From an uncultured Methanospirillum sp. (lineage in GTDB: Archaea; Halobacteriota; Methanomicrobia; Methanomicrobiales; Methanospirillaceae): a stretch of DNA of 64,000 bases. The translations under genes were made by a program, and so were the position numbers. Within the stretch, counting starts at the first letter, position 1; each line of letters starts with the position of its first letter. Of the stretch, positions 2,853-54,800 are shown piece after piece. Location of the stretch: the NCBI GenBank assembly GCA_963668475.1, contig OY764544.1, positions 3,407,986 through 3,471,985 of the forward strand. Reading direction: 5' to 3'. The notes below the pieces were generated by a model. It saw only the letters and a program-made list of their open reading frames with translations. It was not told the DNA's origin and made no database searches.

Positions 2853-3286
2853 TATATTCTAAACAGCTTGTTACGTGATTGTAAAAGCAATCGCTGCTTT
2901 TCTTTTTATTGACACATTAAGGGAATTCTACCCTTTAATCAGAATATATGTCTTTTTTATTTTTTACAGACAGAATACTGGCGTTACCATGTATAATTCA
3001 TGACTTTAGTTTAAATCAGGGCCTAATTCTTCACTAGATCTGTATTTTATCTCTGGGAAATGAGCATGAAAGGTAAAAAGGGAATGATTTATTATAGGAA
3101 GGGATATATCAACTATCAAATGACAGGATTTGGTCATCAATAGTATCAATTCAACATATTTTTTGAATCGTTTGAACTATATATGAGCATAATTCAATAT
3201 CTTAAAAAGCCAATAAATATCAATTGGTATCTGTCTTAGCGATGACTCCTGTCATTGAAAATTATTAATTTGTTATATCTTAAATT

Positions 3287-4093
3287 ATGCTAATTCCAAT
3301 AGAATCTCTAGATGATGGAGAATTTAAAGATGCTCTGGTTTTACCTAATGATGAGCAAAAAATTTGGAAGTTTATGGACTTTACAAAATTTTGTAGTCTT
3401 TTATTAGATCAATCGCTATATTTTTCAAGATTGGATCAATTCGAAGATACATATGAAGGGTTTTCATCAGATTCATATATCGAAATAAAATGCAGAGATA
3501 ATATTGCAAATAACAAATTCCCTCTAACAAATGAAAATGTAGAGTATGTAAAGAATTTATACGGGATTTACACCCGATTTTTAAGAAAAACATCCTTTGC
3601 TTGTTGTTTCCATATCAATAACATTGAGTCAGCTGCTCTGTGGAAATTATATTCTAAAACAAATGAATCCGTTGCAATCCAGACAACAGTGGGAAGATTG
3701 AAGTTATGTCTCGAAAAAAATCCTAAATGTAAAATCCATCTTGGAAAAGTTATCTATGATGAATCACAGGTAAAAAAAGAATTAATTGACGACAAGATAT
3801 ATCGGTTTTTTATTAAGAGAAAAAGTTTCGAATGTGATAGAGAATTAAGAGCCATTATTCAAAATTCATTCACAATTGACGAATATTTAAAAAATAATAA
3901 TCCTAAATCCATTGGTTTTAATGAGAATAATAATTTTTTACAAAATCCTTCAATTGAAGATTTACTCAAGATAGACACACTTTATCAGGATGGTATACAA
4001 GTCAAAGTAAATCTAAATGAATTGATTGAAATAGTTTATATCGCACCCAATGCTCCCAAGTACCCTAGATTCCCGGAAATCTGTAACGAGTGA
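3287..4093 (+). CDS. DUF2971-family protein, C-terminus possibly truncated
   Basis: Family-type motifs IWKFMDFTKF..LL...LYFSRLDQFED.YEG, CCFH.N..ESAALWKLY and KRKSFE.D.ELR. The sequence is very AT-rich. Confidence 0.75.
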   Translation: MLIPIESLDDGEFKDALVLPNDEQKIWKFMDFTKFCSLLLDQSLYFSRLDQFEDTYEGFSSDSYIEIKCRDNIANNKFPLTNENVEYVKNLYGIYTRFLRKTSFACCFHINNIESAALWKLYSKTNESVAIQTTVGRLKLCLEKNPKCKIHLGKVIYDESQVKKELIDDKIYRFFIKRKSFECDRELRAIIQNSFTIDEYLKNNNPKSIGFNENNNFLQNPSIEDLLKIDTLYQDGIQVKVNLNELIEIVYIAPNAPKYPRFPEICNE

Positions 4094-4543
4094 GGAAGTA
4101 AAATCTTAAAATTGATTGCAAAATTAAAAAATGATTGATTATAGGGGATTAAAATTTTTATCCTCGTTATGTATTTTTAGCACACATAACGATTAGGTGC
4201 AATTTTCTAATCTCTATAATATTATCTTCATTTAGATAAATTTCTTCGTATACCTCTCGGACCTTTTTCCATCGTTATGTGTTCCCGGGAATCAAGGAAG
4301 TACATTCTTTCCCTCGTAGGAAAAATAATTAAACTCGCAAACACTGAAGATAAATTTAGATTTTCTGTAAAACCATCTGGCCTATTTAATAAGCCGAATT
4401 ACTGATTTTTGATTATTTTATAATTAAAAAGCCAAATAAAAAAATTCTAAAATAACTAGCGTTCAAAACTACTTCATATAGAAGTTTGCCATTCTATCGC
4501 CTTTAGAGCGAACATTACACATCTGTCGCATCAAACATATCTG

Positions 4544-4639
4544 TCAATTGAATCTTACAGATACGCGACCCGCTCTGGTACGATAGAGGTTACTCTCAGC
4601 CCGGGCCATCCAGTCTTTAACAATTTCCCGGTTTTTCAT
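4544..4639 (-). pseudogene. HEPN-domain toxin, N-terminal 31-aa fragment only
   Basis: MKNREIVKDWMARAESNL..RAGR is the typical first helix of the HEPN partners of MNT. It overlaps the MNT 3' end and stops after 31 codons. Confidence 0.65.
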
Positions 4640-4942
4640 ACAGGAGACCTTCCCTGTCTGTGCGATCTCGCGATAGATAAGATGAGGATTTGTCTTGTAC
4701 CTATTGAAGGAGTCTGGCGTCTCAACCAGAATATCGACAGGAGCCTCAACTTCCCATAATTGCTGGTATAATTGCATTGTCAGTTTTCTTCTCTCACTGA
4801 CCCCTGTTTTTAAGATACAAAGGTCATAATCACTGTCATCCTGTTGGGTCCCTGTTGCTCTGGAACCAAAGAGTATAATTGAATCAGGATCTGCAGTATC
4901 AACGATTATTCTGATGATCCCGGAGAGAACAGAATCGTTCAT
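4617..4942 (-). pseudogene. Minimal nucleotidyltransferase (MNT antitoxin-like), frameshifted at its 3' end into the HEPN fragment
   Basis: IILFGSRATG..QDDSDYDLCIL motif. The usual MNT end (LYEKPGNC*) lies in a different frame at 4643-4617. Confidence 0.8.
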
Positions 4943-5179
4943 AATTGTGTTCCTTGAATTATACCTCTGTATCAGCTTAACGGTTGCTATATCCTCTTCA
5001 CTTTCTATCATTCTTTTGTTGATCTGTTTCCAGGAAAAACTGGGTTCATTAAGGTACAACACATTCCGGTGTTTGAGCAGAGTATGTCCTACAAAACAGA
5101 CTAATTACATGACCAGTAAAAAACCTGTTCTTCAGGGTATAATTGCCCTGAATGAGGTCTTTTCGTCGGCTAAAAAAAT

Positions 5180-6142
5180 TTAACGGTATGTTTGATTCTT
5201 ATGGATATTATCAATGCCCCATTTTGCATTCTTATTATCTGGATTTAATTTAAGGGTTTCATTGAAAGCATTCAATGCCTCTTCTGTTTTACCCAATCCA
5301 CTCAAAATATATCCTTTCGTTAGCCAGCCACTTGAAAACTGCGGATTAACTTCAAGTGCCTGATTTATGACTTCAAGTGCTTCGTCATATTTATCCGTAT
5401 TCTCCAGAATGTAGGCCTTATTATTTAATGCGACAACATCCTTCGGATTTGCTTGAATTGCTAAATTTATTATCTCCATTGCTCCTGAAAAATTATTGGA
5501 TTTTATGAGGGCATTTCCTTTATCATCCAAATGCTTAACTAAATTTTCTATTGTTTCTTTTGCAAATGAATTATCTGGATCCAACTCAAGTGCCTTGTTT
5601 AAGGCATCTATAGCTTCACTATCCTTGTCCAATGTAGAAAGGACATATCCTTTTCCTGTCCATGCATCAGCACTTTCTGGATTTTCTTGAGTATCCTGGG
5701 TAAATATTTTTAAAGCTCCAGAATAATCCTTCTTTGTAAGTAAATCACTCCCCTGGTTAAACAGAGAATCGCTCCCGTTTTTGAAGAAGGTCTCTTTTCC
5801 CAAATGATCTGATATTGACTTTTTCGTGTTTAATGCCTGAGGATTTTTAGGATTAAGCTCAAGAGCTTTATTCACTGCATCAAGTGCTTCGGTATAGCGA
5901 TTTAATTTTTGAAGAACGTAGGCTTTACCATTCCATAGTGCTGTATTAGTTGAATTTAATTGGATACCTTGTTCATACGCATCCAATGCACCGGAATAGT
6001 CATTATTTTTATAAAGTAGTGTATTTCCTGTGTTGAGGAAATCATCTGCCGAATCAGCATGAACTCCTGCTAAAACCAGTGTTACCAGGAGGCAGTACAT
6101 AACGAGGGAAAAGATCGGTTTCATGAATAGTTCTCCATTCAT
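5180..6142 (-). CDS. Secreted tetratricopeptide-repeat protein (start may be 6124)
   Basis: Signal peptide ending VHA, then repeated W..K...L..L.(R/K)..EA(L/I).A.N.AL.LNP TPR units. Confidence 0.9.
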   Translation of the reverse strand: MNGELFMKPIFSLVMYCLLVTLVLAGVHADSADDFLNTGNTLLYKNNDYSGALDAYEQGIQLNSTNTALWNGKAYVLQKLNRYTEALDAVNKALELNPKNPQALNTKKSISDHLGKETFFKNGSDSLFNQGSDLLTKKDYSGALKIFTQDTQENPESADAWTGKGYVLSTLDKDSEAIDALNKALELDPDNSFAKETIENLVKHLDDKGNALIKSNNFSGAMEIINLAIQANPKDVVALNNKAYILENTDKYDEALEVINQALEVNPQFSSGWLTKGYILSGLGKTEEALNAFNETLKLNPDNKNAKWGIDNIHKNQTYR

Positions 6143-6215: not shown

Positions 6216-6665
6216 TTATTTACTATTTAACATCTCATCAAGGATCTGAGCAGCTCCCCGGACCAGTTCAGGACACACCTTCTTCGCCGCTCCAACCCTC
6301 TTTGATTCTGCAAACTCCTCCGGGATTGCCATATTGTATCCCAGGAGATCAGGACACTGGATTGACCCGAATTTTGCGACAAACCTCTCGATAAACTCCT
6401 TGTCAAGGGCATAACTTTTGTCACGCCATTCAGGCTCATCAAGAGAGTTCATCCCCCTGATAAGACCGAGAACCAGTATGGCACCGCTCACTGCCCCACA
6501 CAAATTCCCGGTCCTGCCAACCCCTCCTCCAAATCCTGTTGCGATCTTCCGTGCCAGAACCGGGTCAAGTCCGTGTTCTTTTGCATACACAGAAAAGACA
6601 GACTGTGAACAGGTATACCCTTCAGCTAGCAGGTCAACTGCCTCTTGTGCATGATCCATATTCAT
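6216..6665 (-). CDS. C_GCAxxG_C_C family putative redox-active protein
   Basis: GYTCSQSVF, GFGGG.GRTGNLCGAVSGA, GSIQC..LLG and KVC motifs. Confidence 0.9.
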   Translation of the reverse strand: MNMDHAQEAVDLLAEGYTCSQSVFSVYAKEHGLDPVLARKIATGFGGGVGRTGNLCGAVSGAILVLGLIRGMNSLDEPEWRDKSYALDKEFIERFVAKFGSIQCPDLLGYNMAIPEEFAESKRVGAAKKVCPELVRGAAQILDEMLNSK

Positions 6666-6926
6666 ACATCTTCATTTGCCGGGATATCAATATCGAATAG
6701 ATCAGAAATGATCGTATCGGAAGGTTCTGGATATCATGTAAAACGAAGCCTGTTCGATATCCTGTATCCCTTCCAGATCCATAACCTTAACTCTTTTTCT
6801 GCTACATACTCACGAGTGCTATAGGGTAGAATTTCCACGTCACCCACGGTGCCAAGTTTTCCAGGATACTATCATTCTTTGAGAATCAGGCTCTTCTATC
6901 TGATAGTGCGGGAGAGTGTGATATAG

Positions 6927-8489
6927 ATGAATAATAATCTGGTAATTCTTTCAGTTTTGATGATCTGCCTGGTAATCGTTGGTATCTCTGCCGGTTCTTC
7001 TCAGAATGAATCACCATCAACAATAGTAAAGACAGATACTGGTTTAATATCGGGTTTTCATCAGGATAATATCCGTGTCTTTCATGGCATCCCATTCGCT
7101 GCACCACCAACCGGAGAACTACGATGGAAGCCCCCGGCACCTGTAACACCCTGGGAAGGTGTCAAAGAGACGAAGGAGTATTCTGCAACCTGCCCTCAAC
7201 GGGTTTCCACCGGTAAGACTCCTTCGTCAGGATCGGAGCCGCTCAACATGAGTGAGGACTGCTTATATCTCAATGTCTGGACCCCGGCAAAGAGTGATGA
7301 CGAAAAACTTCCGGTAATGGTCTTTTTCTATGGGGGAGGATTTGCTGATGTGGCTGGATCCATGCCTGTCTATAATGGGACCACCCTGGCTGAAAGAGGG
7401 GTTATCTTGGTCACCCCTAACTACCGGCTTGGAGCACTGGGTTTCCTTGCCCACCCGGAACTGGATGCCGAATCTATGCATAATAGTTCAGGAAATTATG
7501 GAATTCTCGATCAGATTGCTGCTCTTGAGTGGGTCCAGCGAAACATCGGATCGTTTGGGGGTGATCCGTCCAGGGTGACAATATTCGGGCAGTCAGCCGG
7601 CGGTGAAAGTGTTCTGATCCACCTGATAAGCCCGGAGAGTAAGGGCCTTTACCAGCAGGCAATTGTCCAGAGTGGTCCTTTCTGGGCAAACGGGGCCATC
7701 ATTAATGCCACCCATTCCAAGGAGAATGCTGAACAATTTGGTGAATGGTTTGCACAAAACCTTGGCTACTCCCGACCTGATGCCATTGAGCAGATGCGAA
7801 ATATCAGTCCCGAAGACCTGATCAATGCAACACCGTGGTCACCGTCCTCATTCCGGACTACCCACACGGTCATGTTTGAGCCAACAATTGATGGATGGGT
7901 TATCCCGGACACCCTGGACACCATGTTCCGTCTCCACCAGGAAAATGCGGTCCCTCTTATGATCGGGAACAACGCCAATGACGGAGCAACTCTTGCGGCT
8001 GATGCCAATATGACGGTTCCTGAGTACATATCTTTCCTTACAAACCGGTTCGGCGATGAGGCCGGTGTAGTTCTTGAAAAATATCCTGCGAATTCAACTT
8101 CAGAAGTGCAACTCCGACTGGCAGAGATCATGACCGATTATGATTTCAGTGATTCGGTGAAGTTTGCAGCTGGATCCATGGGGGACATCACCCCTGATAC
8201 GTATCTGTACCGGTATTCATATGTCATTCCCGGTCAGCCATCAGGTGCCTTTCATGGAAGTGAGACCTTACTGTTGTTCGGAGTTCCAGGAGTACCTTCA
8301 GATCCGGTAGTGGCCGGGAATGTGGTAGATCTCTGGACACGGTTTGCAAAGACCGGAGATCCAAACGGTGGAATGAATATCACCTGGCCGAATTACACCA
8401 AGAAGAAGGGTCAGTACCTTGATATCGATACAGTCCCGAGTGTGAAGAGCGATAATTCAACGAGTGCCCTGTTTCAAGACCTCGAATAA
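6927..8489 (+). CDS. Secreted type-B carboxylesterase/lipase (paralog 1)
   Basis: Signal peptide; GIPFAAPPTGELRW, SEDCLYLNVWTP, YGGG oxyanion region, nucleophile FGQSAGG, catalytic His in GAFHGSE. Confidence 0.95.
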   Translation: MNNNLVILSVLMICLVIVGISAGSSQNESPSTIVKTDTGLISGFHQDNIRVFHGIPFAAPPTGELRWKPPAPVTPWEGVKETKEYSATCPQRVSTGKTPSSGSEPLNMSEDCLYLNVWTPAKSDDEKLPVMVFFYGGGFADVAGSMPVYNGTTLAERGVILVTPNYRLGALGFLAHPELDAESMHNSSGNYGILDQIAALEWVQRNIGSFGGDPSRVTIFGQSAGGESVLIHLISPESKGLYQQAIVQSGPFWANGAIINATHSKENAEQFGEWFAQNLGYSRPDAIEQMRNISPEDLINATPWSPSSFRTTHTVMFEPTIDGWVIPDTLDTMFRLHQENAVPLMIGNNANDGATLAADANMTVPEYISFLTNRFGDEAGVVLEKYPANSTSEVQLRLAEIMTDYDFSDSVKFAAGSMGDITPDTYLYRYSYVIPGQPSGAFHGSETLLLFGVPGVPSDPVVAGNVVDLWTRFAKTGDPNGGMNITWPNYTKKKGQYLDIDTVPSVKSDNSTSALFQDLE

Positions 8490-24334: not shown

Positions 24335-24497
24335 AAACCACTGGTATGTCTGGTAATTGAATCAATCTTCTGTATTGTTCCGGACCTCTTGCTTTACTCC
24401 AAGGGGGTGCATCCGACCTTTGTCACTGTGATACTCACAGAATCCCACTGTTAGTTTGAATGAGAGGAGTGAGTGTGAGAGTGATTCTCATGATCCT

Positions 24498-25171
24498 TGT
24501 TGCGGAATCGCGGAACGTTGCGGCATTGTCGCGGAAGTTTCCGCGACGAATCGGGATGAGAAACATAGGTAATTAGTAAAAATAATAATAATTATTGTAC
24601 TTTATGTACTCTTCGCGGAAAATCTGAAAGTACAGTACAGGTAGAATCTGATACGACAGTATCATGTTCGTGTGCTTGTGCCCCTGAGATTTCCGCGACG
24701 ACTGATCATGAGCAGGTAACTGGGGTCGATGTATCTTCCGATTGCGATTCCGGGCACTCTGGTACTCGCCCCATTTTACGCGACGATTCCGCGAACGCCC
24801 GGAATGGGCTGGAAACTGTAACAACTTCCGCGAGCACCGAGAATCCGGGAAATACCTTCAGAATAAGACCATCTGACTTCTGTGAGATCGACCGGGGGTT
24901 TGGTGTTGGGCCGTGTGACTGCTGCAGGTCAGAATGGGTTCACTTCCAGGAACGTATCGGGAGCGGATGTCTGCTCCTCCCCGGACGAACTGGAAGATCT
25001 GCAGGTCGTGTTATGAGCAGCAAGGCTTGAGGAGGCAGCATCGGGCAGGTGTCTTCCCGATGTGATTGATACCGGGTCTGTGATACGTTCAAGGCCACAT
25101 GGCATGATCCAGAATCAAAGACTGTTATCTGTTATTCATGTCGGTCCAGGATTCTCCGGGAGGGGTCATGA
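24498..25171 (+). pseudogene. Frameshifted 3' relic of a large Cys-rich protein of a probable integrated plasmid/virus-like element
   Basis: Joining frames gives CGIAERCGIVAEVSAT / SKNNNNYCTLCTLRGKSE...FRIRPSDF...GPCDCC..EWV.FQER / KICRSCYEQ / ARLEEAASGRCLPDVID / KATWHDPESKTVICYSCRSRILREGS*. This has several CxxC pairs and no start. GC is higher than in the flanks. Confidence 0.7.
24500..24833. repeat. Array of 8-bp TCGCGGAA/TTCCGCGA repeats around an AT-rich patch
   Basis: Exact copies at 24508, 24529 and 24613 (TCGCGGAA) and at 24539, 24691, 24787 and 24826 (reverse complement). One-mismatch copies at 24500 and 24776. Confidence 0.9.
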
Positions 25172-25572
25172 TACAGCCGGTGTTAGGGTTCAATCTGCCT
25201 CATCTGCTCTGGTTTCTGTTCGGGTGTTCTGTGCTCTGGATGGTTGGCAGGCTGAAGGCTGATCCGGTGGCAGAACAGGTGAGGACGATCATCGACGGGC
25301 CGGGTGAGATTAGGAGGATATCCCGGACCTATACTCGGGATGTGGTACTCACGGAGGAAGGCATGGAGGTTGACCCCGGGGGGACAGTCGGAATATCTCC
25401 GTCTGGTCGAGGGGTTGTGTTCGAGATTCCGGGAGAGGATGGCGGACGGTTTGTAGCGGTTGCCTCCTTCATGAAACGTCTGAATAGTCATGATCAATCA
25501 ACGAAAATATCCTTACGCTTTTCTAACCGGGATGGTAGAGCAAAAATATACCGCAATAACAGAAACTATTGA
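25168..25572 (+). CDS. Hypothetical protein coupled to the relic gene; the 3' end probably runs off the element into AT-rich host DNA
   Basis: The ATG overlaps the relic's TGA (ATGA at 25168-25171). GC is high to about 25487 and then drops abruptly. Confidence 0.5.
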   Translation: MIQPVLGFNLPHLLWFLFGCSVLWMVGRLKADPVAEQVRTIIDGPGEIRRISRTYTRDVVLTEEGMEVDPGGTVGISPSGRGVVFEIPGEDGGRFVAVASFMKRLNSHDQSTKISLRFSNRDGRAKIYRNNRNY

Positions 25573-31230: not shown

Positions 31231-33315
31231 TCATACCTTGAAGAAATTAACCTGATTCTGCACATTCTCAACGATGCCATTCAGGTTCCCAATAACCTGA
31301 GAGATCTGATTAACCGCCATAGATACTTCATTCGTTGAATTTGCAGACAAATCTGCATCTTTGGAAGTATTCGATACCAGACTGCCAATCTCAGTAATAC
31401 TTGCGGTAATCTCTTCAACTGAAGCCGCCTGTTCTTCGGTTGCTGCCGCAACATCGGTAACATTCAGATTGATATCACCTATCAACTCAGCAATCCGGGA
31501 GAATGACTGAAGGGTATCCTGGAGTGCTTTTCCTCCGGTCTCAACATCTTTTACCGTTCTTTCCATAGCATCTGATGCCTGGACTGACCGGCTCTGAAGA
31601 TTCTCAATTTTGTATGCGATATTTTCAGCAGATGTCTGAGTCTCGTGAGCAAGTGCTTTCACTTCATCAGCGACGACAGCAAACCCGAGTCCTGCCTCTC
31701 CTGCCCGTGCCGCTTCAATCGCTGCATTGAGGGCGAGAAGGCTGGTTTGATCTGATATATCCCTGATAAGGCCCACAATCTTTCCAATCTCTTCCATCTG
31801 GTGGCTGATATCCTCCATATTCTTCCTGCTCTCGATGGTTGACTGGGTAATACCATCCATTCCTTTCTCAGCAACACCGGCGAGTGTGACACCTTCCCTG
31901 GAATACTTATCAGCTTCGGTTGTGAGTCTGCTCACCTGTTCACTCTTGACAGCAACCTGGTTTACCGTAGTATTGAGTTCTTCCATCGCCTTTAGAATCT
32001 GAGAAACTCCATCTTTGCATTTCTCTGCATTTTCACTGACACTTATGGATGAATCTGCAACCGCCTTTACACTAGCTGCGACCTCTTCAGTACTTGCATT
32101 AGCCTCCTCGGCATTTGCAGTCAGATCACTCATCTGCTGCTGAATAGAAATAATTGCACCAGATACTGATCTTCCACTCTCGTTTAATGCATCCTTGAAC
32201 CGCTTGAAATCCCCTCTTACATCTGCCTGCTCATCATACCTGACTGAAAAGTTTCCTGTGGCAAATTCATTGGCAATTCTCATGGCCTCCATATTTGGTT
32301 TGAGAAAAGCTTCAACCAAGTCATGAATCGCCTCAACCAGTACCTTGAATTCGCCTGAATATTTGGAAGAATCAATGCGAATATCCAGATCTCCATTTCT
32401 TATTTTTTCAGCAATATTCATGATTGAAGTATTGGCAAATTTAGATCTTTCCAGGTTTTCTTTGATCTCCCGGTTTTGTTTCTCTAAATTTACTGCCATT
32501 GCATCAAAGGAAGAACCAATCGAACTGATCTCATCACTACCTTTCATATCAATATGATACGACAGGTTACCTGACCCTAATTCGTCCATTCCCTTCATAA
32601 GAAGGTTAAATCTCCGATTGATGTTCCGTGTAATTACCCATGCAATTGACAAAAGAACTAACGTACAGATGAAAATAACAAGAATGATAACCAGAAGTGC
32701 AAGAGAATACATCTTATTTGATTCAGTGTAACACTGACTTGCGGTCTGATTGTTTTCATCCATCAGTTTCTGAATGTCATTCAGGATGATATTGCGTTTA
32801 GGAATGGCCTCCTGGGACCGTATTTGAGTGGCTTCTGCTTCTCTTCCTTCAAGTGTTAATGAATTAACCCGTTTTGTTATCTCAAAGTAATCTGAAGATG
32901 CCGCCTTTATCTCCTTAATCATATCCTTTTCGGTTTCAGTCATCTCTATTGATGAATAGTCATCAACACGATTGAGAAGTGAGACCCCGAATGGCTCCAT
33001 CTTCGTCTTAAAAATCTGATCTTTTTCAGAAACGTTAGATGAAAGGGTAAATGTGTATCCACCGATTGCATAATTCAGCATATCAGAGTATGCTCCATTT
33101 GCGAGCATGGAATGGGCATATTTATTCTTGTATATTTTATCAATCTCTGAATTTATCGATCCTGCAGTGTATAACCCACATATCCCGATTATAATAATTG
33201 AAATAACACCAACTGCTATCAGGATGAGCAGTTTTCTGCTCATCGATATATCATCTAATTGTATCATGGTAGATCCCCTGTACCCAAATAACGAAAAGAA
33301 TGTGGCAAAAACCAC
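31231..33315 (-). CDS. Methyl-accepting chemotaxis protein (4HB sensor, HAMP, signalling domain); start possibly 33267
   Basis: Two TM helices, hairpin tip [33 protein letters not shown], and methylation motifs [14 protein letters not shown] and [14 protein letters not shown]. Confidence 0.96.
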
Positions 33316-33436
33316 TGTCCCCGATTCATCAATACGGATAGTAGGCTGATTTATTTCATTTTCAGTAACTTAACGCCGGCCTTATTGCGAATCAATGCAC
33401 GAACTTTTATAGCCTATAATTATTATTTTTATAAGA

Positions 33437-34708
33437 ATGGATGGGGATGCGTCTGATTCTATATGGGAAGTCTTGAAAAAAACCAATAAACCGATATCAA
33501 TAACCCGGATTGCAAGGGAAGCCTCTATTTCCCGGACAACCGCTGCACGGTACCTCGATCATCTGCATTTTTCGGGTCAGGTTAAATTATACGAGATAGG
33601 AAAAGCAAAAAAATATCTGCTCTCTTCAGAGCAACCGACTCATTCTATCTGTGATTTATCATCAGATCTTATCATCTTTTTAGATATTTCATTCAAAATT
33701 ATGTATGTAAATAAGGCATATCTGAAGTATTTTCATCTCTCCCTCGAAGAGATCATCGGGAGACGAATTGATGCCCTGAGCCTGGATATTTTTTCAGCCG
33801 TAGATATCCTGAAAATACTGAAAGAGTATAACCGGGATGAGTTTTCGTCGCATATCATTGAGATATTTAGGGAAAACGATATGTATACCTATGAATTGTT
33901 TTTTGTAAAAGGACAGATCGGCCCATATCGTGCTGCTATCTCTATTATTATAAAGGATATAACCGAAAAAAAACGAATAGAAGATGAGAACCGGTTTCTT
34001 GCATCAATTGTAGCATGTTCGGAGGATGCGATAATTGCAGTGAATAGGTCAATAACTGTTACTGCATGGAACACCAGTGCTGAACGGTTATTTGGATATA
34101 GTGCCGGTGAAGTAATTGGCAGATCGATATCTGTTATTCACCCTCCCTGGTATAATGATGTGTTTCCTATTCATGACCGGTTACTGAACGGAGAAGTAAT
34201 TAAGCAGTACGAGTGTACCCGTCAAAGGAAAGATGGTTCACTCGTTGATGTTTCAATTACTGCCTCATTAGTTTTTGATCAAGATGGAGGGATTCTCGGC
34301 TCATCAGCTATTTTTCGTGATATTACGGCATATAACCAGATAAAGAGAACCAGATCTCATTTAAATCTGCAATTACATGCATTGCTAGATAATATCCATG
34401 AAGTGTTGGCAATTATTGATCCGACCACTCATAAAATCCTGTTAGTTAATGCTATTGGGAGAGAAGTGTTTGAAAACCAGACCGCGATATGCTGGTTTCA
34501 CACGGGACAGTATCATTTTCCGATGGTATGTGATATCTGTTCTCAATTAAACCTGAAAGAAAGACAAGGTCCATTCTCATTCATATTTAATAAAGGTAAC
34601 GTGAATCTGCATTCAAAAATTCAGATGATTCCATATGGGGCTCAAAAGAGTGCTCTGATGGTATCCATGTTTGATCCTGAAAACTTTGTAGCCGAAGGAC
34701 CACTGTGA
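33437..34708 (+). CDS. Winged HTH plus multi-PAS one-component regulator
   Basis: HTH ISITRIAREASISRTTAARYLDHL..SGQV....IGKAKKY; PAS SIVACSEDAIIAV.....TAWNTSAERLFGY and RKDGSLVDVSITAS. Confidence 0.85.
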   Translation: MDGDASDSIWEVLKKTNKPISITRIAREASISRTTAARYLDHLHFSGQVKLYEIGKAKKYLLSSEQPTHSICDLSSDLIIFLDISFKIMYVNKAYLKYFHLSLEEIIGRRIDALSLDIFSAVDILKILKEYNRDEFSSHIIEIFRENDMYTYELFFVKGQIGPYRAAISIIIKDITEKKRIEDENRFLASIVACSEDAIIAVNRSITVTAWNTSAERLFGYSAGEVIGRSISVIHPPWYNDVFPIHDRLLNGEVIKQYECTRQRKDGSLVDVSITASLVFDQDGGILGSSAIFRDITAYNQIKRTRSHLNLQLHALLDNIHEVLAIIDPTTHKILLVNAIGREVFENQTAICWFHTGQYHFPMVCDICSQLNLKERQGPFSFIFNKGNVNLHSKIQMIPYGAQKSALMVSMFDPENFVAEGPL

Positions 34709-35298
34709 GAATAATGGATAGAGTAAATTTAGGATTATTGAGGTTTTTGACCAGTTATCTGTGATTACCTGACATCTATGTTCTCCCCATGATGTATTGG
34801 TAGATCTGCAGGATAAGTGAGGCGGTATGCCTGTCCTGATAGTTCGTTCGGAGTACTCCTTCTCTCTTCTGATTTCTGTCCGGGTACTCCGTGCTCTGAA
34901 TGATTGGCAGAAAGAATTCTGATCCGGAGATAAAGCAGGACAAGGTTATCGTCGACGGTCCGTGACGATCATGAGGTTTTTCAGGTTGATGCCCGGAAAG
35001 TGATCAACCGGAAAGATAGTGGTTGTGGTAGATCCCGGGTGAACAACTGATTATCACCGTCAGGGTACCGGTGGTGATAAAAATCCCGTTGAAGAAGCCC
35101 GGGCATTTATTGTTACCGTACAGATATGAAATATGCTGACGCTCAGGCTGAGGAAGAAGGCCGGTTTTGAGGAGTGGAAGGGAGATGAATGGAGAGATTG
35201 GGGGCACATTCAGGCTCCATGAAGAAATTGCGTAAAAAAATCACATATTGGGATTTGAGATCTGATATTTTACTACGGCTATTGTATCATACAATCCT

Positions 35299-43750: not shown

Positions 43751-46700
43751 TTGAAAAAAATTTTTGTTTCTAGAAAAGAACATACGGATAAACTTTCGAA
43801 TCGCGAACAGATTGATAGGGGCCCCCTTCGTGACGAGCTCTTTAGCAGGGATCAACTGGAGAAGCATGCAAAGGAAATTGCAGGGTGCTATCGGGTTGAT
43901 ACCAGAAAAGGGGAGGATCGCCTTCTTCCACGACTTACCGATAATGAGCAGGTCCTGCTAAAAACTCACAAACTCCTCAATACTGTTATAGAAGAAAATT
44001 CTCCGGTTGCTCCTGCAGGTGAATGGCTCCTCGATAATTTTTACCTTGTTGAGGAGCAGATCAGAACCGCTCGTCTGCACCTTCCTGAAGAATACAGCAA
44101 AGAGCTTCCCCACCTCGCGAACGGACCGCTGGAAGGATATCCAAGGGTCTATCATATTGCACGAGAACTCATAGCCCACAGTGACGGCAGGATAGATACC
44201 GAAAACCTCTTTGCTTTTATCGATGCGTATCAACAGGTCACTCCTCTCAAACTTGGTGAACTCTGGGCAATTCCGATCATGTTCAGACTCGCGTTGATCG
44301 AGAATCTACGCAGAGTAGCCGACATTATATCTGAAAACCGGTCTGATCGCGATTCTGCCAATTACTGGGTGGATCGCATGACCCGAATGGCACAGCATGA
44401 TCCAAAAAGTCTCATTCTTGTAATAGCTGATATGGCCCGGTCGGATCCACCCCTGACCAGTGCATTTGTTGCTGAGATGTCACGCCAGTTACAGGGAAGT
44501 TCTGGTCCTCTATTATTTGCTCTTTCATGGATAGAGCAGCGGTTATCTGAAAAAAATCAGACCCCTGAACAGATGATCAGTGCAGAGATCCAGGCTCAGG
44601 CCGCTGATCAGGTCTCTTTTGGGAACAGCATAAGCAGCCTCCGCCTTCTTGATACAAGTGACTGGCGAACTTTTGTAGAACGGCTGAGTATTGTTGAGCA
44701 TACCCTTCGCAGTGATCCGGCAGATGAATATGCAGATATGGATTTTGAGACCCGGGACCGGTATCGCCATGTGGTTGAGGAGATTGCGAGGAATGGCGGG
44801 ATATCGGAAGATCTGGTTGCAGAAAAAGCGGTAGAACTTGCATCACTGGCCCGAAGCAGAGACAAGCAGAACGGAAGGGAGTCCCATCTTGGCTATTATC
44901 TGATAGATGACGGGAGGGAAGCACTGGAGAACGCACTTCTGTATCATGCTTCTGGTATCAGCCAGATCAAGAGATCTGGACTGGCTCATTTCTTTCCCCT
45001 CTATATCGGTGGTATCGTATCCATCACCCTCCTTGTTCTTTATGTTGTATTATCCAGATTCATCTTCTTAGACTGGTTCATTACTCTTCCGATTCTGATA
45101 CTGCTTCTATTTCCTGTCAGTCAGGCAGCAATGAACGTGATGAACTGGGCATGTACCCTGTTTTTCACGCCGGTCTCTCTTCCTAAGATGGACTATTCAA
45201 AAGGGATCCCGGGCAACAGAAGAACTGTCGTGGTTATTCCGACGGTTCTTTCAGGATTTTCAGATATTTCAAAGCTTCTTGATTCACTTGAGGTCAGATT
45301 TCTCGCAAATAAGGAGAAAAATCTCTACTTTACTCTACTTACTGATCTCAAAAATGCCCCTGCAGCACAGATGCCTGAAGATGAAAAACTGGTATCCCTG
45401 CTTTCGAGTGGGATTGAAAACCTGAATGAGAAATACCGGGAAGAAAACCCTGATACCTTTTTTCTCATGCACCGGAACCGTACCTACAGCCCGGGTGAAC
45501 GGATATTCATGGGATACGAACGGAAGAGAGGAATTCTCGAAGCGTTCAGTACCTTCCTGTCAGATCCCAAAGAAAATCAGTTCTCTCATGTCGCCGGCAA
45601 TCCTGATGTTCTTACTGATATCACATACGTGATAACGTTAGATACTGATACAGATCTCCCGAGAAATAGTGCACGAACTCTTATCGGAACGATTGCACAT
45701 CCCCTGAACAGGCCACAGATTGATCCAGAAATCCGGGTGATCAAAAAGGGATACGGAATTCTTCAGCCGCGTGTTGCAATCTCACTCTCTGAGTCAGGAA
45801 TTTCCCGGTTTGTATCACTCTTCGGTGGAGAACAAGGGATAGATCCGTATACCCGTGTCGTATCAGATCTGTACCAGGATGTATTCCATGAAGGATCGTT
45901 TATTGGAAAAGGGATCTATGATCTCGAAACATTTTCCCTGGCAGTGAAAGGCAGGTTTCCGGAAAACCTCATCTTAAGCCATGATCTTCTGGAAGGCTGC
46001 TATGCCAGGACAGGTCTTGTCAGTGATGTACAGGTCTTTGAAGAATATCCTATCAGTTATCTGACTGATATCATCCGGAGACACCGGTGGATTAGAGGCG
46101 ACTGGCAGATTCTCCCCTGGATTTTTTCATCTGTTCCTGACAGTTCATTTAAGAAACAGCAAAATCCCCTCTCTCTTCTCTCGCGGTGGAAGATCTTTGA
46201 TAATCTGAGAAGAAGCCTGATAGCCCCTGTTACCTTTCTCCTGTTTCTTCTTTCATGGACTATTCTAGAGGATTCACTCTTCTGGACTGGGTTTATCATA
46301 TCACTCTTCCTGATTCCCCCAGTAATCATTGTAACTCAAAAAATCATCCGAAAGCCTGGAGAGCATACCTGGAGGATGCATATCCATGATATGGGCCATG
46401 ATCTCCGGGTTCAGATTGCTGTCCCGCTGCTCACCCTTGCTTTCCTCCCCTTTGAAGCATACATCTCTCTTGATGCCATTGTTCGCTCCTGCTGGCGGAT
46501 GACGATCTCTCATCAGAACCTGCTTGAATGGACTACCCACCAGGAAGCAGGACAAATGGGCGTCTCTGATGTTTCAAGTTCATATCGTATTATGTGGCCT
46601 GCACCGGTTATCGGTGCAACATTATTCTTACTCGCAGGCATACTGCCTGTATCTTTCACTTTGTGCTGCATTCCTTTTGCCTGTGCATGGATCCTCTCCC

Positions 46701-49700
46701 CTATAGCAGCCTGGTGGATAAGCCAGCCGATAATATCCCGTACACTACCCCTTTCTCCTGAACAGAACCGATATTTGAGAAGAATTGCACGCAAAACATG
46801 GCGGTTTTTTGAGACTTTTGTCACCGCTGAAGATCATCATCTCCCCCCTGACAACTACCAGGAACAACCGGTTGAGGTTGTTGCTCACCGAACCTCTCCA
46901 ACAGACATCGGCCTTTCTCTCCTTGCAAATCTTACCGCCTATGACTTTGGTTACATTTCTGCTGGTGAGTTTTTGGATCGTACTCACAGTACCCTGACAA
47001 CCATGGGGAAACTGAAGAGATTCCGTGGTCATTTCTACAACTGGTATGACACGATAACATTAGAGCCCCTGCTTCCCAGGTACATCTCCACGGTTGATAG
47101 CGGTAATCTGGTCGGTGATCTGCTGGTGTTACGGCAGGGACTCTATGAACTTCCTGATCTGTCGGTTATTTCACAAAAATATTCCGAAGGGCTCTCTGAT
47201 GTGCTTCATCTCCTCATCGATGCACTGAAAGCGTCTGAAGAGAGCATGGGAGAAGTTCCGGTTCTTGTTCTATCAAAAATTGCGGATCTGAAGGAATCTT
47301 TGTTCCATATACCGGAAACGGCTCCCGAAATCAACCATTCTCTTTCTGATTTAAATGAGATGTCATCAGATCTTCTGGCTGAACTCTGTTCACATCCTGA
47401 TGAAGAAGTCAGGTGGTGGGCAGATGCAACCCGGCGACAGATAAAGAGTCATGAGGCTGAAGTAACCTCCTTTATTTCATGGGTATCCACCGGTTCTCAT
47501 CCTGACACGGTCTTCGATGAGATTCCTGCAGAACTTTCGCCCTCTCTCGCCCTTTTTCTGAAAAAATATGAGTCTCTGAGCAACCACATTCCAACATTTA
47601 GAGAAGAAGCTGATATCATAGAGGTTTTCCAACGTGATCTTGCTCCATTATTGGAGTGGGTTGCTACAGATAAAACTCCAGCCAATACGTCAGGTACCGG
47701 GTACCAATGGCTTGTTCGGACTATGGAAGAGATGCAAATCTCAAGTAAACGTGCCAAAGATCTCCTTTTGATGGTATCAAATCTTGCTGATGAATGTGAA
47801 ACATACTCCGATATTGAGTATGAGTTTCTGTATGATCAAACCAGCAAACTTCTTGCCATCGGGTATAATGCAACAGATCTCAAACGTGATGCCAGTTTTT
47901 ATGATCTCCTGGCATCTGAAGCACGACTTGCCAGTTTTATCGGAATTGCCAGGGGAGACCTTCCCCAGGAGCACTGGTTTGCGTTAGGACGGCTGCTCAC
48001 GACCGTTGGAAAGGGAAGATCAACGCTCATCTCCTGGAGTGGTTCGATGTTTGAATACCTTATGCCACTCCTTCTGATGCCAAATTATGAGAATACTCTT
48101 CTGGATCGCACCTACCGTGCTGTGGTTACCAGGCAGATCGAATATGGAAGACAGAGGAATGTTCCATGGGGGATATCAGAATCAGGCTATAATATCATTG
48201 ATGCAAGCCAGAACTACCAGTACCGTGCATTCGGAGTTCCGGGGCTTGGATTTAAGCGTGGTCTTTCTGAAGATCTGGTCATTGCTCCCTATGCTAGTGT
48301 GATGGGTCTGATGGTTCATCCATCGTTAACCTATATGAATCTGAAGGAGATGGAATCGCTTGGATATTCAGGGACATACGGGTTTTATGAAGCTGTTGAC
48401 TTTACCCCTTCACGAATTCCTCCAGGCCAGAATCATACAATCGTGAAATCCTTCATGGTACATCACCAGGGGATGGCTCTGCTCTCGCTTGCGTATATCC
48501 TTCTTAATCGCCCGATGCAAAGGCGATTTGAATCTGATCCATCCCTTAAGGCAACCCTGATGCTTCTTCAGGAGAAGATGCCCCGAATTACTCCCTTCTA
48601 TCCACATACCGGTGATGTGCAGGGTGTTCATAAGAAGAATGGGGATGCGGAGTCACTCATGCGAATCTTTCAGACTGCACATACACCACGACCTGAAGTA
48701 CACCTTCTCTCGAACGGGCATTACCATGTGATGGTAAATAATAGCGGATCGGGATATAGCAGATGGAACGATCTTGCGGTAACCAGGTGGCGGGAAGATC
48801 CGACCGCAGACAACTTGGGAACCTTCTGTTACATCAGGGATCTTGCAAGTGGAGAGTTCTGGTCAAATGGGTATCAGCCCACAAAAAAGAATCCCGAAAC
48901 CTTTCAAACGACATTTAAACAGGCACGTGCTGAATTCAGAAGACGTGACCGGGAGTTTGATACCCGTACAGAGATCATCGTTTCTCCTGAAGATGATGTG
49001 GAACTTCGACGAATACGGGTAACAAACCGGTCATGGAAACGAAGGACTCTGGAATTTACCAGTTATGCTGAAGTGGTCCTGGCTCCTCAGACATCTGATG
49101 AATCACATCCGGCATTCAGTAACCTGTTTGTTCAGACTGAACTTCTTCAGGAGAAGAATGCAATCATAGCCACAAGAAGGCCACGATCAGAGGATGAAAA
49201 GCCGCCATGGATGCTTCATCTCATGACTGTTCATGGCACCGTGGTTCGAAAGATCTCATTCGAGACAGTCAGGGCTAATTTTATCGGGAGGACAAATTCT
49301 CTCTCAAATCCTGCTGCCATGACTGATTCATCTGTCCTTTCAAACTCATCAGGTTCTGTGCTTGATCCCGTGGTTGCGATCAGATGTACTATCATACTGG
49401 ATCCACAGGAGACTGCAGGGGTGAATATTTTCACCGGAGTTAGTGAGAGCCGGGATAAATCGGTCGCCCTTGTTGACAAGTATTATGACAGTTACATCGC
49501 TGATCGTGTCTCCGAGCTTGCCTGGACACATGCTCAGGTTGTACTCAAACAATTGAATGCAACAGAGAGGGATGCCCGACTGTTTGGGAGTCTTGCTTCA
49601 TCGATTATCTATGCTCATCCTTCGCGTAGGGCGAGCCAGAAGGTACTGGAAAAGAACTCCCGTGGGCAGTCAGGTCTGTGGGGGTATGGAATATCAGGAG

Positions 49701-53659: not shown

Positions 53660-53753
53660 TATAATTGAGATCCCTGGCTTATGTTCTGATATTCTGGATG
53701 TGGTGCCAAAAATGATGAAAAAAGAACATTCATGCAATGATGATCTGTATTGA

Positions 53754-54035
53754 TCAGTACCCAATCATCGATTCTGAGTACTCTCTTTTATTGAGATGAT
53801 AGATACAAGGTTGTTTTTTGGATTGTTCTTCTGATAAGTTGTATCTGTGCGTTTTGATCTCCCAAAAATTGGGCATCTTCTCATCACCGAGAATACTTGC
53901 ATACCCCGACTCTCCAACCATATTAAAGTTACAATGAAGGTTGCCATCTTCTTCTTTCAGGCAATGGATACATCTTCGTGAAATATCTTCACTTACACAT
54001 GGCCTGATTGATCTTTCTTCTATTGGAGGTATCAT
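53754..54035 (-). CDS. Small Cys/His-rich hypothetical protein
   Basis: 93 aa with a GGAG RBS; C..RCIHC......HC...C.YH spacing. Confidence 0.55.
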   Translation of the reverse strand: MIPPIEERSIRPCVSEDISRRCIHCLKEEDGNLHCNFNMVGESGYASILGDEKMPNFWEIKTHRYNLSEEQSKKQPCIYHLNKREYSESMIGY

Positions 54036-54307
54036 ACTCCCAATCAGTCTTACTTCCCTTTAATTGTTATTGCAGTACGGTACACTATGTACATTTCAGA
54101 TCTCATCAGTCACTTTCGAGATGTAAAATACACATAGTTGTGAACTCACACATTAGGGAGCAGGCTATCAGGTTTAGTGCACTATTATCCCAGATCGAAA
54201 AAATAGGGCAGAATTCATGAATATTTTATATCACATTTCTGATTCTAAAATCTGTTTTTCAATGCCCATACTATATGCCCTCATTGCAATACAGTAAATG
54301 ATAAAAT

Positions 54308-54787: not shown

Positions 54788-54800
54788 AATAGTTACAGGT

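Follow-up and report, generated by a model that had tools for sequence, protein, structure and literature searches.

The 8-letter words clustered in this Methanospirillum DNA most likely remain from a conserved array of protein-binding DNA sites that lies inside a replication (rep) gene and is a candidate replication origin. By comparison with known systems, the best reading is an iteron-type origin that would be read by the element's own initiator, and the array rather probably derives from the origin that served in cis to replicate a small integrated element of Methanomicrobiales. Established here are the array and its conservation, the fact that it does not follow the reading frame, the switching of its word between elements, the low stability of its AT-rich patch and the domain make-up of the encoded protein.

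Word array in the window

The window, that is, the whole 64-kb stretch of DNA analysed, contains seven exact copies of TCGCGGAA/TTCCGCGA at 24508-24833, all inside 326 bp. Those on the + strand start at 24508, 24529 and 24613, and those on the - strand at 24539, 24691, 24787 and 24826; no TCGCGGAA copy was found on either strand in the remaining 63.7 kb. When the window was shuffled by dinucleotides, the mean was 1.2 copies and the maximum 5, and none of 100 shuffles reached seven. One-mismatch copies, in turn, are at the expected level window-wide (34 found, 35.5 expected), and the unusual feature is the local cluster only, which comprises seven exact and three near copies in 334 bp. The preliminary description had reported the seven exact copies in about 330 bp, two one-mismatch copies, copies in both orientations and a 9-bp palindrome, and all of these were found again: the one-mismatch copies lie at 24500 (+) and 24776 (-), three exact copies are on the + strand and four on the - strand, and the palindrome is an exact 9+9 match. 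An exact search for this 20-nt palindrome in species-representative genomes, among which the source genome is not included, returned four chance matches in high-GC bacteria. The sites are as follows.

24500-24507, + strand: site A, TTGCGGAA, one mismatch to TCGCGGAA; exact TCGCGGAA at this place in L017 and L022
24508-24515, + strand: site B, TCGCGGAA; kept in L006 and L017
24518-24525, + strand: degenerate site B', TTGCGGCA; full word at this place (the -74 site) in L018 and L019
24528-24547: palindrome GTCGCGGAA-GT-TTCCGCGAC, composed of site C (24529-24536, + strand) and site D (24539-24546, - strand)
24570-24602: AT-rich patch, candidate DNA unwinding element; an Asn run is encoded there in intact genes
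24613-24620, + strand: site E, TCGCGGAA; extended form TCGCGGAAAA
24691-24698, - strand: site F, TCGCGGAA; inverted partner of E, 78 nt apart
24776-24783, - strand: site G, TCGCGTAA, one mismatch; exact in L006, L017, L022 and L012
24787-24794, - strand: site H, TCGCGGAA, 11 nt from G; exact in L012, degenerate in L006 and L017
24826-24833, - strand: site I, the final site of the array, TCGCGGAA; kept in L005, L006, L012, L017 and L022

Occupancy of sites G and H alternates between elements. The copies bracket an AT run, TAATTAGTAAAAATAATAATAATTATT, at about 24572-24598, as the preliminary description had noticed. Between 20000 and 30000, no 30-bp duplex is less stable than the AT patch (-26.5 kcal/mol, against -29.9 for the next), all duplex stabilities being from nearest-neighbour calculation only. 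In 64 of 70 loci, the equivalent patch has the lowest stability of any 30-mer in the entire rep ORF, and in 29 of 70 it has the lowest in the full locus of about 8 kb, counts that overstate independence, as the loci are kin. Asn codons are strongly biased there (AAT:AAC 163:17 in the patch vs 482:1043 elsewhere), but this is partly circular and is not counted as evidence because the patch was selected on its AT content. Clustered copies of one short sequence in a few hundred base pairs, with an easily melted AT-rich region alongside, make up the general picture of an iteron origin, and both are present here. An AT patch with flanking repeats is also the typical look of autoregulated promoters and plasmid centromeres.

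The rep relic and its intact relatives

The gene in which the array lies is a 5'-truncated relic that has lost about 830 N-terminal codons and is 82% identical to L017, one of the homologous elements. The preliminary description had taken it for a relic, and its truncation and frameshifts could be mapped against L017; its homologue is P0001, and intact homologous ORFs are found in L006 (804 aa) and in L007, L008, L011 and L017 (1054-1084 aa). The remains of the element in the window are listed below, with lesions given relative to L017.

24459-25171, + strand: rep relic (pseudogene), C-terminal third with linker and double zinc module (tblastn of L017 residues 832-1083 onto 24459-25168)
After 24562: 1-nt deletion
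24566: in-frame TAG
After 24957: 4-nt deletion
After 25019: 1-nt deletion
After 25066: 40-nt deletion
24880-25171, + strand: broken coding remnant of the C-terminal double zinc (4 x CxxC) domain, from alignment to P0001 and L006
25138-25572, + strand: homologue of a small gene (about 120-135 aa, N-terminal hydrophobic segment), 71% identity by tblastn to the 131-aa protein of L007

The small gene is always directly 3' of rep and overlaps it, and follows rep in L005-L008 and L018-L022; in the window it starts with ATG at 25168 or 25138 and its homology stops near 25497. One cDNA-adapter end was located at 25552 in the sequencing-run contigs. The window copy is thus a dead, truncated and frameshifted gene fragment and no working replicon, reduced to the array, a zinc-module remnant with frameshifts and the small gene after it, and it is unable to make its own initiator. 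Data from the source organism include a 61-nt unitig (24502-24562) of 2-3x depth, together with two contigs (4728 and 832 nt) with 93-94% identity to L017, gapless over L017 4228-4636, the stretch inspected. By these sequences, an intact cognate element is also present in the source organism and has at least the left part of the array in common with the relic; therefore, the initiator of that element may bind the relic in trans.

The intact proteins of about 1050 aa consist of an AEP-type primase, a zinc module, an MCM-like AAA+ helicase, a winged helix, a linker and a C-terminal double zinc module. The AEP motifs LPIDIDP, SGNGAHLLY and NAARIWKLYGT and the Walker A motif GESGKGKSH are invariant in intact homologues, and the central domain of the predicted model matches MCM helicases (Foldseek E = 1e-8, probability 1.0), in agreement with the preliminary description, which had assumed a replication-protein gene. 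The linker of about 130 aa is predicted to be disordered (pLDDT <50 for residues 784-916). The intact C-terminal double zinc domain is modelled at a pLDDT of 91.5; a fold search with this domain against the PDB gave no match better than E = 0.8 and no DNA-binding structural relative. Searches of Pfam, PHROGs, NCBIfam and PDB sequences with the large protein and its neighbours yielded nothing useful beyond a weak P-loop match and a Hjc-like neighbour; PF27228 is a precomputed annotation carried by the family. The Hjc-like endonuclease gene (L007 1969-2310) has weak matches in both Pfam (E = 1.9e-4) and NCBIfam (E = 4.3e-4), and is absent from the window relic.

Elements of this family are roughly 5.5 kb in size, integrated and present in many copies per genome. 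More than 2700 proteins belong to the family, with 324 loci in species-representative genomes, and the hosts are Methanospirillum, Methanoregula, Methanolinea and relatives (Methanomicrobiales). A scan of viral contigs with the C-terminal alignment gave no match, and one with the full-length alignment gave relatives for the AEP domain only; a metagenome scan gave two loci only. Small integrated elements of arCOG07809, such as that of Mpal_2033 of Methanosphaerula palustris, were described in silico in 2014, and their protein unites primase, helicase, HTH and Zn finger (Makarova et al., PMC4158269). The window family apparently corresponds to these elements, matched on architecture and context: both are small, integrated and multi-copy in the same host order and share the four-part protein, found complete in the intact homologues and as its broken last part in the window, and a neighbouring gene of the Holliday-junction-resolvase family, represented in L007 by the weak Hjc matches. 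The two accounts differ in that the arCOG07809 helicase was assigned to superfamily I (PMC4158269), whereas the model here matches an MCM AAA+ domain. The terms origin and iterons are both absent from the text of that paper (PMC4158269), and among the papers examined, none that names this element family mentions either in it. The preliminary description had suggested an undescribed replicon type. Since the family and its prim-pol protein were described in silico in 2014 (PMC4158269), the replicon type is not wholly undescribed; novelty appears to be limited to the intragenic array, and the four-domain protein and the element family are already known.

Position, frame and conservation of the array

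Intact homologues carry the array in the linker-coding stretch of rep, where about 10-12 sites, in both orientations and more than two codon phases overall, lie at fixed positions about the AT patch. Four copies in tandem, spaced about 10 bp, are followed by an inverted copy that forms the palindrome; after the AT patch of about 30 bp come an inverted pair 78 bp apart, another inverted pair and two to three further copies, which gives the orientation string ++++-[AT]+-(+-)---. Adjacent sites are spaced 8-11 or 19-20 nt. The offsets are equal in L006, L017 and L022; relative to the final site, they are -319, -288, -213, -135, -50 and 0 in L006 and -318, -297, -287, -213, -135, -39 and 0 in the window.

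Within the one unbroken frame of L017, + copies are read in phases 0 and 1 (IAE / LRGK) and - copies in phases 1 and 2 (SAT / FRD), and words at equivalent places in L024 are read in still other frames (WRK, VPL). The earlier statement that the copies occupy more than one codon phase thus holds for the L017 frame; in the window, the broken gene offers no frame against which to judge it. L017 and L022 align over 425 nt without gaps, and there the sites differ at 3 of 72 positions, compared with 144 of 353 in the remainder of the linker (4% vs 41%; Fisher p = 3e-11). The conserved entity is the DNA and not the peptide, because all copies switch jointly, altering amino acids, while the sites stay fixed. 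The odd peptide had been regarded as the by-product of a DNA element, and this view is borne out, because intact homologues retain both the 8-mers and the AT patch while the amino acids around and within the words vary; this conservation was the check proposed at the time. Some members of the family have short linkers (165-290 nt) in which the array was not found, and therefore any origin in those members must lie elsewhere.

Concerted switching of the word

The element-specific words are internally uniform: all copies within one element share one word, which is switched jointly between elements. The words and the elements in which they occur are as follows.

TCGCGGAA: window, L006, L017, L022 and L012
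TGGCGGAA: L018
TAGCGGAA: L019 and L037
TTGCGGAA: L020 and L032
GGCGGAAG: L055
TGCGGAAGT: L099
TGCTGAAG: L088
TGCAGCAA: L093
TGCAGAAG: L068

Each homologous element has 5-11 exact copies of its own listed word in less than 520 nt, where shuffles give at most 3, and the flanking 4-12 kb contains mostly 0-1 copies (0-4 across all words). The variable base is homogeneous within elements (chi-square 73, p = 4e-12). One site architecture is common to all words; for instance, the distance from E to F is 78-80 nt in elements with different words, and L018 (GTGGCGGAATTTTCCGCCAC), L019 (GTAGCGGAATTTTCCGCTAC) and L020 build the palindrome from their own word. The switch in the palindrome is silent, falling on third codon positions, with Val GTC/GTG/GTA paired with Ala GCG/GCC/GCT. 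At site E, by comparison, the word is read as an NGC codon, and the residue becomes Arg (CGC), Gly (GGC), Ser (AGC) or Cys (TGC) by element. Different words are found in co-resident elements of one genome in M. lacunae, M. stamsii, M. purgamenti and the MAG SRP302447_co4_352. Mutual information between word positions and protein columns, calculated for both candidate reading domains and confounded by relatedness, gave no clear determinant residue.

Binding, melting and origin function are what we infer for this array. The linker-coding DNA, with about 10-12 copies of an element-specific 8-9-bp word, would double as the origin, and a DNA-binding part of the initiator (the winged helix and/or the zinc module) would read the words. 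The two oppositely oriented halves of the array would place helicase rings head to head, the AT patch would melt and the AEP domain would prime. Co-resident elements may differ in word so that each initiator fires its own origin only. A bolder proposal, made with low confidence, is that array and initiator form a diversifying specificity system, a 1-2-base 'address code' against cross-firing, in which truncated copies, consisting of array, zinc module and small gene or of the array alone as in this window, would be more than debris: they would be orphan origins or decoys that titrate the initiator of a resident or incoming element or are fired by it, serving as incompatibility/immunity determinants or parasitic mini-replicons.

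Alternative explanations

The words could simply be codons of a repeated VAE / SAT peptide in a low-complexity linker, or arise by chance. Although AE.SAT and E[IF]SATSDQ do recur in homologues down to 45% identity, the copies lie in different phases and on both strands within one frame, the word is kept while the residue varies (Arg/Gly/Ser/Cys), synonymous third positions co-vary across the palindrome, and the sites hold their positions and spacing although 41% of the bases around them differ; chance is excluded by the shuffle counts in the window and in other elements. This explanation, of next to no probability, is therefore ruled out. Equally negligible is a host chromosomal oriC with origin recognition boxes bound by Orc1/Cdc6. 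Inverted short repeats about an AT-rich stretch are the general form of archaeal origins, and the array resembles them in this respect, but the sequence is homologous to the interior of a mobile-element gene with many copies per genome, and the word varies between copies in one genome. No Orc1/Cdc6 was found among the long window ORFs scanned with Pfam (about 6.9-43.5 kb), and the combination of an orc1/cdc6 gene with ORB-type boxes that marks an archaeal oriC is not seen over this stretch.

Unlikely, though of more substance, is an internal promoter, in which the AT patch would be a TATA/BRE inside rep driving a shorter transcript covering the zinc module and the small gene, and the words would be operators of an autoregulator, possibly the zinc module itself. 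AT-rich boxes between repeats are typical of autoregulated promoters, which the array fits, and intact stand-alone zinc-module ORFs, some with part of the array, are each followed by the small gene (P0001/L005, 132 aa; L012, 170 aa; L020, 311 aa; L018, 385 aa). These short ORFs, however, derive from truncated DNA copies and not from internal transcripts, no in-frame start codon 3' of the AT patch is conserved in intact genes, and the 10-12 sites extend over about 350 bp on both sides with fixed spacing. Contigs from possible RNA runs provide no usable transcript start or strandedness around the array, and paralogues pile up on the conserved parts. Pairing of + and - copies in RNA or single-stranded DNA, as an AEP priming site or an mRNA structure tuning translation across the linker, is quite unlikely. 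The orientation string is balanced and nested, folds are far more stable than those of shuffles (z = -4.0 and -5.4; overall -3 to -8), and in L024 + copies carry G and - copies A at the variable base, which fits G:U or G:T pairing. Against this, sense and antisense fold equally well in 12 elements, so that nothing points to a sense-strand RNA; all helices share one sequence and switch together, which pairing alone does not need; the 8-11 or 19-20 nt spacing is near the helical repeat of duplex DNA; and the flanks of partner copies do not covary pair by pair. A priming site on a single strand would itself belong to an origin. Some other cis site bound by an element protein, such as a centromere, a packaging signal (the elements have been proposed as satellite viruses) or a recombination site, is very doubtful. 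Short-repeat arrays about an AT-rich core describe plasmid centromeres as well, packaging sites can sit inside the gene of their own binding protein, and three independent truncations break at or beside the array (the window left of A, L012 left of G and L005 left of I). However, neither a partition ATPase nor a terminase was seen in the elements of roughly 5.5 kb, the array is inside a replication gene with the two-fold layout expected for ring-helicase loading, and replication-associated breakage also predicts breakpoints near an origin.

Comparison with known systems

Several known systems have features in common with the proposed intragenic origin. The lambda origin lies inside gene O, in the stretch for a flexible linker between two domains, with initiator sites beside an AT-rich region; its four iterons of about 19 bp form one block, O is an initiator only, which recruits host DnaB, and in lambdoid phages the iteron sequences differ and are matched by the O proteins. 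The present array would be similar in lying inside the initiator's gene in linker-coding DNA, in combining repeats with an AT region and in varying by element. Unlike in lambda, 10-12 words of 8-9 bp flank the AT patch to its left and right, the protein bears its own primase and MCM-like helicase, and the host is an archaeon. In phage P4, the alpha protein joins primase (Toprim-type), helicase (SF3) and a C-terminal origin-binding domain in one polypeptide, and octamers TGTTCACC are repeated many times in both orientations at ori and crr, two separate site clusters. A small integrative element with a primase-helicase in one protein and octamer-size words running both ways seems comparable, but AEP and MCM-like AAA+ domains are used here with a single array in linker-coding DNA. 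SaPI origins have two sets of short island-specific repeats that flank an AT-rich region, and Rep fires the cognate ori only; the ori adjoins the rep gene and is not inside it. Repeat sets about an AT region, specific to each of many alleles of an integrative element, suggest a likeness, whereas the array here is inside rep, and SaPI hosts are bacterial and the proteins unrelated.

In SV40/polyomavirus and papillomavirus origins, short words (GAGGC; E1 sites) in inverted sets and an AT tract serve two head-to-head initiator-helicase hexamers. The inverted sets of short words about a centre with an AT tract would be alike, but those are non-coding origins of eukaryotic viruses with an SF3 helicase and far fewer sites. 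In archaeal ORB/mini-ORB origins, MCM loading is directed by inverted boxes on either side of an AT-rich unwinding region, with a separate Orc1/Cdc6 initiator; the boxes are longer and of another consensus, and such origins are intergenic and single-copy per origin. The likeness would lie in inverted sites flanking an AT-rich region and an MCM-type motor; the present array differs in being intragenic, on a multi-copy element and with no Orc1/Cdc6 gene nearby. The pRN1 plasmid of Sulfolobus is likewise an archaeal mobile element with a single large prim-pol, helicase and winged helix protein, ORF904 (PMC4234260, PMC4158269), but its minimal replicon depends on 166 bp downstream of orf904 and not on an intragenic array (PMC4234260). 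ORF904 also differs in its SF3 helicase, the lack of a C-terminal zinc module and its other arCOG.

Significance

The odd repeat cluster of the window is explained as the scar of a mobile element and not as a host feature. For a very large family of methanogen elements, the array provides a concrete origin candidate and a candidate initiator-origin specificity code. It would be an archaeal counterpart to the lambda ori in O and to the specificity of P4 and SaPI, with an MCM-like helicase as the loaded motor. It also represents a dual use, in which a disordered protein linker has been taken over by a DNA signal and the amino acids follow the DNA word; residues that track a DNA word call for caution in inferring selection from protein alignments. 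To our knowledge, few or no replicating vectors exist for these methanogens, and the cassette of rep plus origin is a natural starting point for a shuttle plasmid.

An array of repeated words in a gene scar

The word TCGCGGAA occurs seven times exactly in the whole 64-kb window, always within 24508-24833. The sites are lettered A-I from 24500 to 24826 (D, 24539; E, 24613; F, 24691; G, 24776; H, 24787).

Array features in the window
24508, 24529, 24613, + strand: exact TCGCGGAA (three copies)
24539, 24691, 24787, 24826, - strand: exact TCGCGGAA (four copies)
24500, 24776: one-mismatch copies inside the cluster
24528-24547: exact palindrome GTCGCGGAA-GT-TTCCGCGAC
~24572-24598: AT run between the left and right word sites

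Dinucleotide shuffles of the 64 kb contained 1.2 copies on average and never reached seven. Because one-mismatch copies are at chance level across the whole window, the signal is a local cluster. The seven copies, the one-mismatch pair, the palindrome and the bracketed AT-rich run are thus all as the preliminary description had reported them from the sequence.

The region 24335-25137, flanked by a divergent 7TM-PAS sensor gene and a small + strand gene, has no long ORF. Its read-through translation found one close relative, the protein P0001 (132 aa, four CxxC pairs), and searches seeded with P0001 led to intact genes of 804-1084 aa in Methanospirillum lacunae and metagenomes. The window matches the last third of these genes, and all that it retains corresponds to protein residues ~832-1083, at 24459-25168.

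Lesions of the relic and its downstream gene
after 24562: 1-nt deletion
24566: in-frame TAG
after 24957: 4-nt deletion
after 25019: 1-nt deletion
after 25066: 40-nt deletion
25138 or 25168 (start) to 25572: small gene, always 3′ of and overlapping the large gene, present in the window

The suspected relic gene is borne out by the missing ORF, the frameshifts, the TAG and the intact homologs: the window copy is a scar, in which a complete array (sites A-I) lies in a truncated and frameshifted gene. It is 82-86% identical to the intact locus L017, with zero substitutions at sites D, E, F and I. The truncation point lies ~10-25 nt upstream of the first array site, and two further truncated copies are also broken at a site edge (L012 left of G, L005 left of I), which may reflect origin-linked breakage or selection for the downstream module.

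Elsewhere in the window, a second stretch, 34858-34962, weakly resembles the small gene following the replication gene (35 aa, 54% identical) and may be a further scar of this element family. Low-GC islands lie at 3000-6000, 32000-35000 and 53000-56000 (32-39%, vs ~45% elsewhere in the window), and a very long ORF of 2928 aa at 43751-52537 is followed by further long ORFs. A contig end of sequencing run X6 at 25552 carries the loose sequence AGTGGTATCAACGCAGAGTACT, resembling a template-switch cDNA adapter; this points to X6 being a cDNA library and to an RNA 5′ end some 160 nt before the histidine kinase gene at 25712.

The replication protein and its elements

All family members share LPIDIDP, SGNGAHLLY and NAARIWKLYGT, which we take to be the three archaeo-eukaryotic primase (AEP) motifs (Iyer et al., 2005). 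Also common to all are a Cys/His module, the Walker A motif GESGKGKSH, a YSGLLEKCPA winged-helix region, a variable linker and a C-terminal module of four CxxC pairs. The structure model of one member, P0042, made with a 70-sequence alignment, has confident domains at residues 9-250, 261-341, 380-748 and 917-1036, and the linker (784-916) has pLDDT <50. The best 50 PDB matches listed for residues 380-748 were all MCM helicases (E ~1e-8, probability 1.0, ~357 aligned columns); this helicase has been named superfamily I in the literature (PMC4158269), whereas the predicted P0042 structure matches MCM AAA+ proteins. The zinc module modelled alone reached pLDDT 91.5, and a fold search with this model found no relative.

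The intact gene encodes the replication protein of a mobile element. More than 2764 family proteins, nearly all of ~1000-1050 aa, were found in Methanospirillum, Methanoregula, Methanolinea and other Methanomicrobiales, with several copies per genome. What are apparently the same elements were proposed to be integrated satellite viruses by Makarova et al. (PMC4158269), and an Hjc-like gene upstream in L007 is consistent with their description.

Several loci depart from the standard gene. In L018, a truncated tyrosine-integrase gene (4228-4947; 239 aa, Pfam Phage_integrase) directly precedes a 5′-truncated replication gene (4977-6134) keeping winged helix, array and zinc module. The same three parts are carried by many called proteins of ~410-426 aa that begin at one shared internal Met of the full-length protein, MLLDL/MLLVL (P0003, P0005, P0007, P0013 and P0023, and those of L021, L014 and L023); these could be a genuine short isoform, an artefact of gene calling or a truncation that recurs. 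In L026, a Cdc6-like AAA gene (6392-7522, - strand; Cdc6_lid, AAA_22) adjoins a replication gene whose linker has no clear array.

Conservation and switching of the word

In the intact loci L006, L017 and L022, TCGCGGAA occurs in six to eight exact copies, with the offsets seen in the window. In the L017 frame, + copies encode S-R-G, I-A-E, V-A-E and L-R-G, and - copies S-A-T, S-A-T, F-R-D and S-A-R, so that each orientation uses two codon phases, which bears out the earlier description of more than one phase. The four TCGCGGAA-class linkers align over ~425 nt without internal gaps; between L017 and L022, only 3 of 72 site positions differ, vs 144 of 353 in the remaining linker (Fisher p = 3e-11), the outcome of the check proposed earlier for 8-mers conserved under a varying peptide. 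Sites A, C, G and H are gained or lost individually while the total stays at 6-8. In blastn comparisons of paralogous elements, the whole element aligns except the linker. On this sequence evidence, the array is conserved independently of the reading frame.

Different words occupy the same places in different elements.

Words of other elements
L018: TGGCGGAA, 7 copies
L019, L037: TAGCGGAA, 8 copies
L020, L032: TTGCGGAA, 5-7 copies
L055/L056: GGCGGAAG, 10 copies (as 7-mer GGCGGAA)
L099: TGCGGAAGT, 10-11 copies
L088: TGCTGAAG, 9 copies
L093, L106: TGCAGCA(A/T), 10 copies
L068: TGCAGAAG, 7 copies
L066: TTGCAGGA, 7 copies

In the flanking 4-12 kb, a word mostly occurs 0-1 times (range across the listed words, 0-4), and shuffled linkers contain three copies at most. 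In the T-N-GCGGAA group, the variable base is uniform within an element and differs between elements (chi-square 73, p = 4e-12; 0 of 100,000 permutations). In the palindrome, the change falls on mutually pairing third codon positions (Val GTC/GTG/GTA with Ala GCG/GCC/GCT), and at site E it alters the residue (CGC Arg, GGC Gly, AGC Ser, TGC Cys). The distant L024 has words at equivalent places, read in other frames. Therefore, the DNA word is kept and the peptide follows, which upholds the earlier view of the peptide as a by-product. A peptide repeat or chance is ruled out by the frame-independent conservation together with this concerted switching. Elements within one genome carry different words; L055 and L056, 15 kb apart on one Methanospirillum stamsii chromosome, have equal linker lengths and identical GGCGGAAG counts.

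A single layout serves all words, in elements with 44-50% protein identity.

Array layout (nt from the least stable 30-mer)
near -84, -75, -65, -54: four tandem copies
near -44: inverted copy, then the AT patch
+35 to +45 and +115 to +125: copy and inverted partner
near +190/+200: inverted pair
out to ~+260: two or three more copies

Neighbouring sites are spaced by 8-11 or 19-20 nt. In 64 of 70 loci, no 30-bp duplex window of the replication ORF is less stable than the AT patch (the linker being ~15% of the ORF), and in 29 of 70 this extends to the entire ~8-kb locus (linker, 6.7%); these counts overstate independence because the loci are related. The short linkers (165-290 nt) of L095, L103, L104, L105, L086 and L101 have neither repeated word nor AT patch, so any origin there lies elsewhere or is of another kind.

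A candidate origin

From the array and AT patch we infer that the linker-coding DNA is most likely the element's origin. Of the earlier proposal of an origin inside its own initiator's gene, the array in a replication gene and the AT patch are established, and the origin itself is a candidate. The putative initiator would bind the words by means of its winged helix, its zinc module or both; the two array halves, facing opposite ways, would place MCM-like rings head to head; and the AT patch would open for priming by the AEP domain. Word diversification would prevent co-resident elements from firing each other's origins.

Other roles fit less well. The array region folds far better than shuffles, but a sense-strand RNA structure is not supported: the antisense folds equally well in 12 elements, and outside the word that they share, the presumed partners do not covary pair by pair. 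The data leave room for a folded single-strand DNA form: in L024 (4285-4625), + copies are TGGCGGAA and - copies TAGCGGAA, the variable base being 4 G and 2 A on + copies and 0 G and 5 A on - copies, an asymmetry that would fit G:T or G:U pairing. A host oriC is very unlikely, as the sequence is the interior of a multi-copy mobile-element gene and no Orc1/Cdc6 was found among the long ORFs scanned (~6.9-43.5 kb). An internal promoter with operators, a centromere or a packaging site is rated lower: the sites are many, they form a two-fold layout about a centre that melts easily, the array is within a replication gene, and neither partition nor packaging genes were seen in the elements of roughly 5.5 kb.

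Bacteria and their phages already provide examples of iteron-type origins, of origins within an initiator gene and of replicon-specific iterons. In lambda, the ori is in the part of gene O that encodes a linker, and the element array likewise lies in linker-coding DNA; a disordered linker is a natural place for a DNA signal, since almost any amino acid is tolerated there. The replicon type, which according to the earlier proposal could be undescribed, is not wholly so: the element family was apparently described in silico in 2014 (PMC4158269). The terms 'iteron' and 'origin of replication' are absent from that text, no other paper citing the family was found, and the literature searched gave no mention of an intragenic array. 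What appears new is the intragenic array itself, whose layout is fixed and whose word switches among hundreds of archaeal elements, together with its connection to an AEP-MCM fusion protein.

An intact relative in the source organism

The window is present in genome runs of the source organism. In runs X1, X2 and X6, short unitigs at 24502-24562 (61 nt) and 25142-25172 have 2-3 times the neighbouring depth, and an L017-like gene is represented by contigs of 4728 and 832 nt (93-94% identity), which show no gaps in the part inspected closely (L017 4228-4636). The source organism therefore has an intact element elsewhere, with the left part of the array, at minimum, in common, and in principle the relic array could still be bound by that element's putative initiator.
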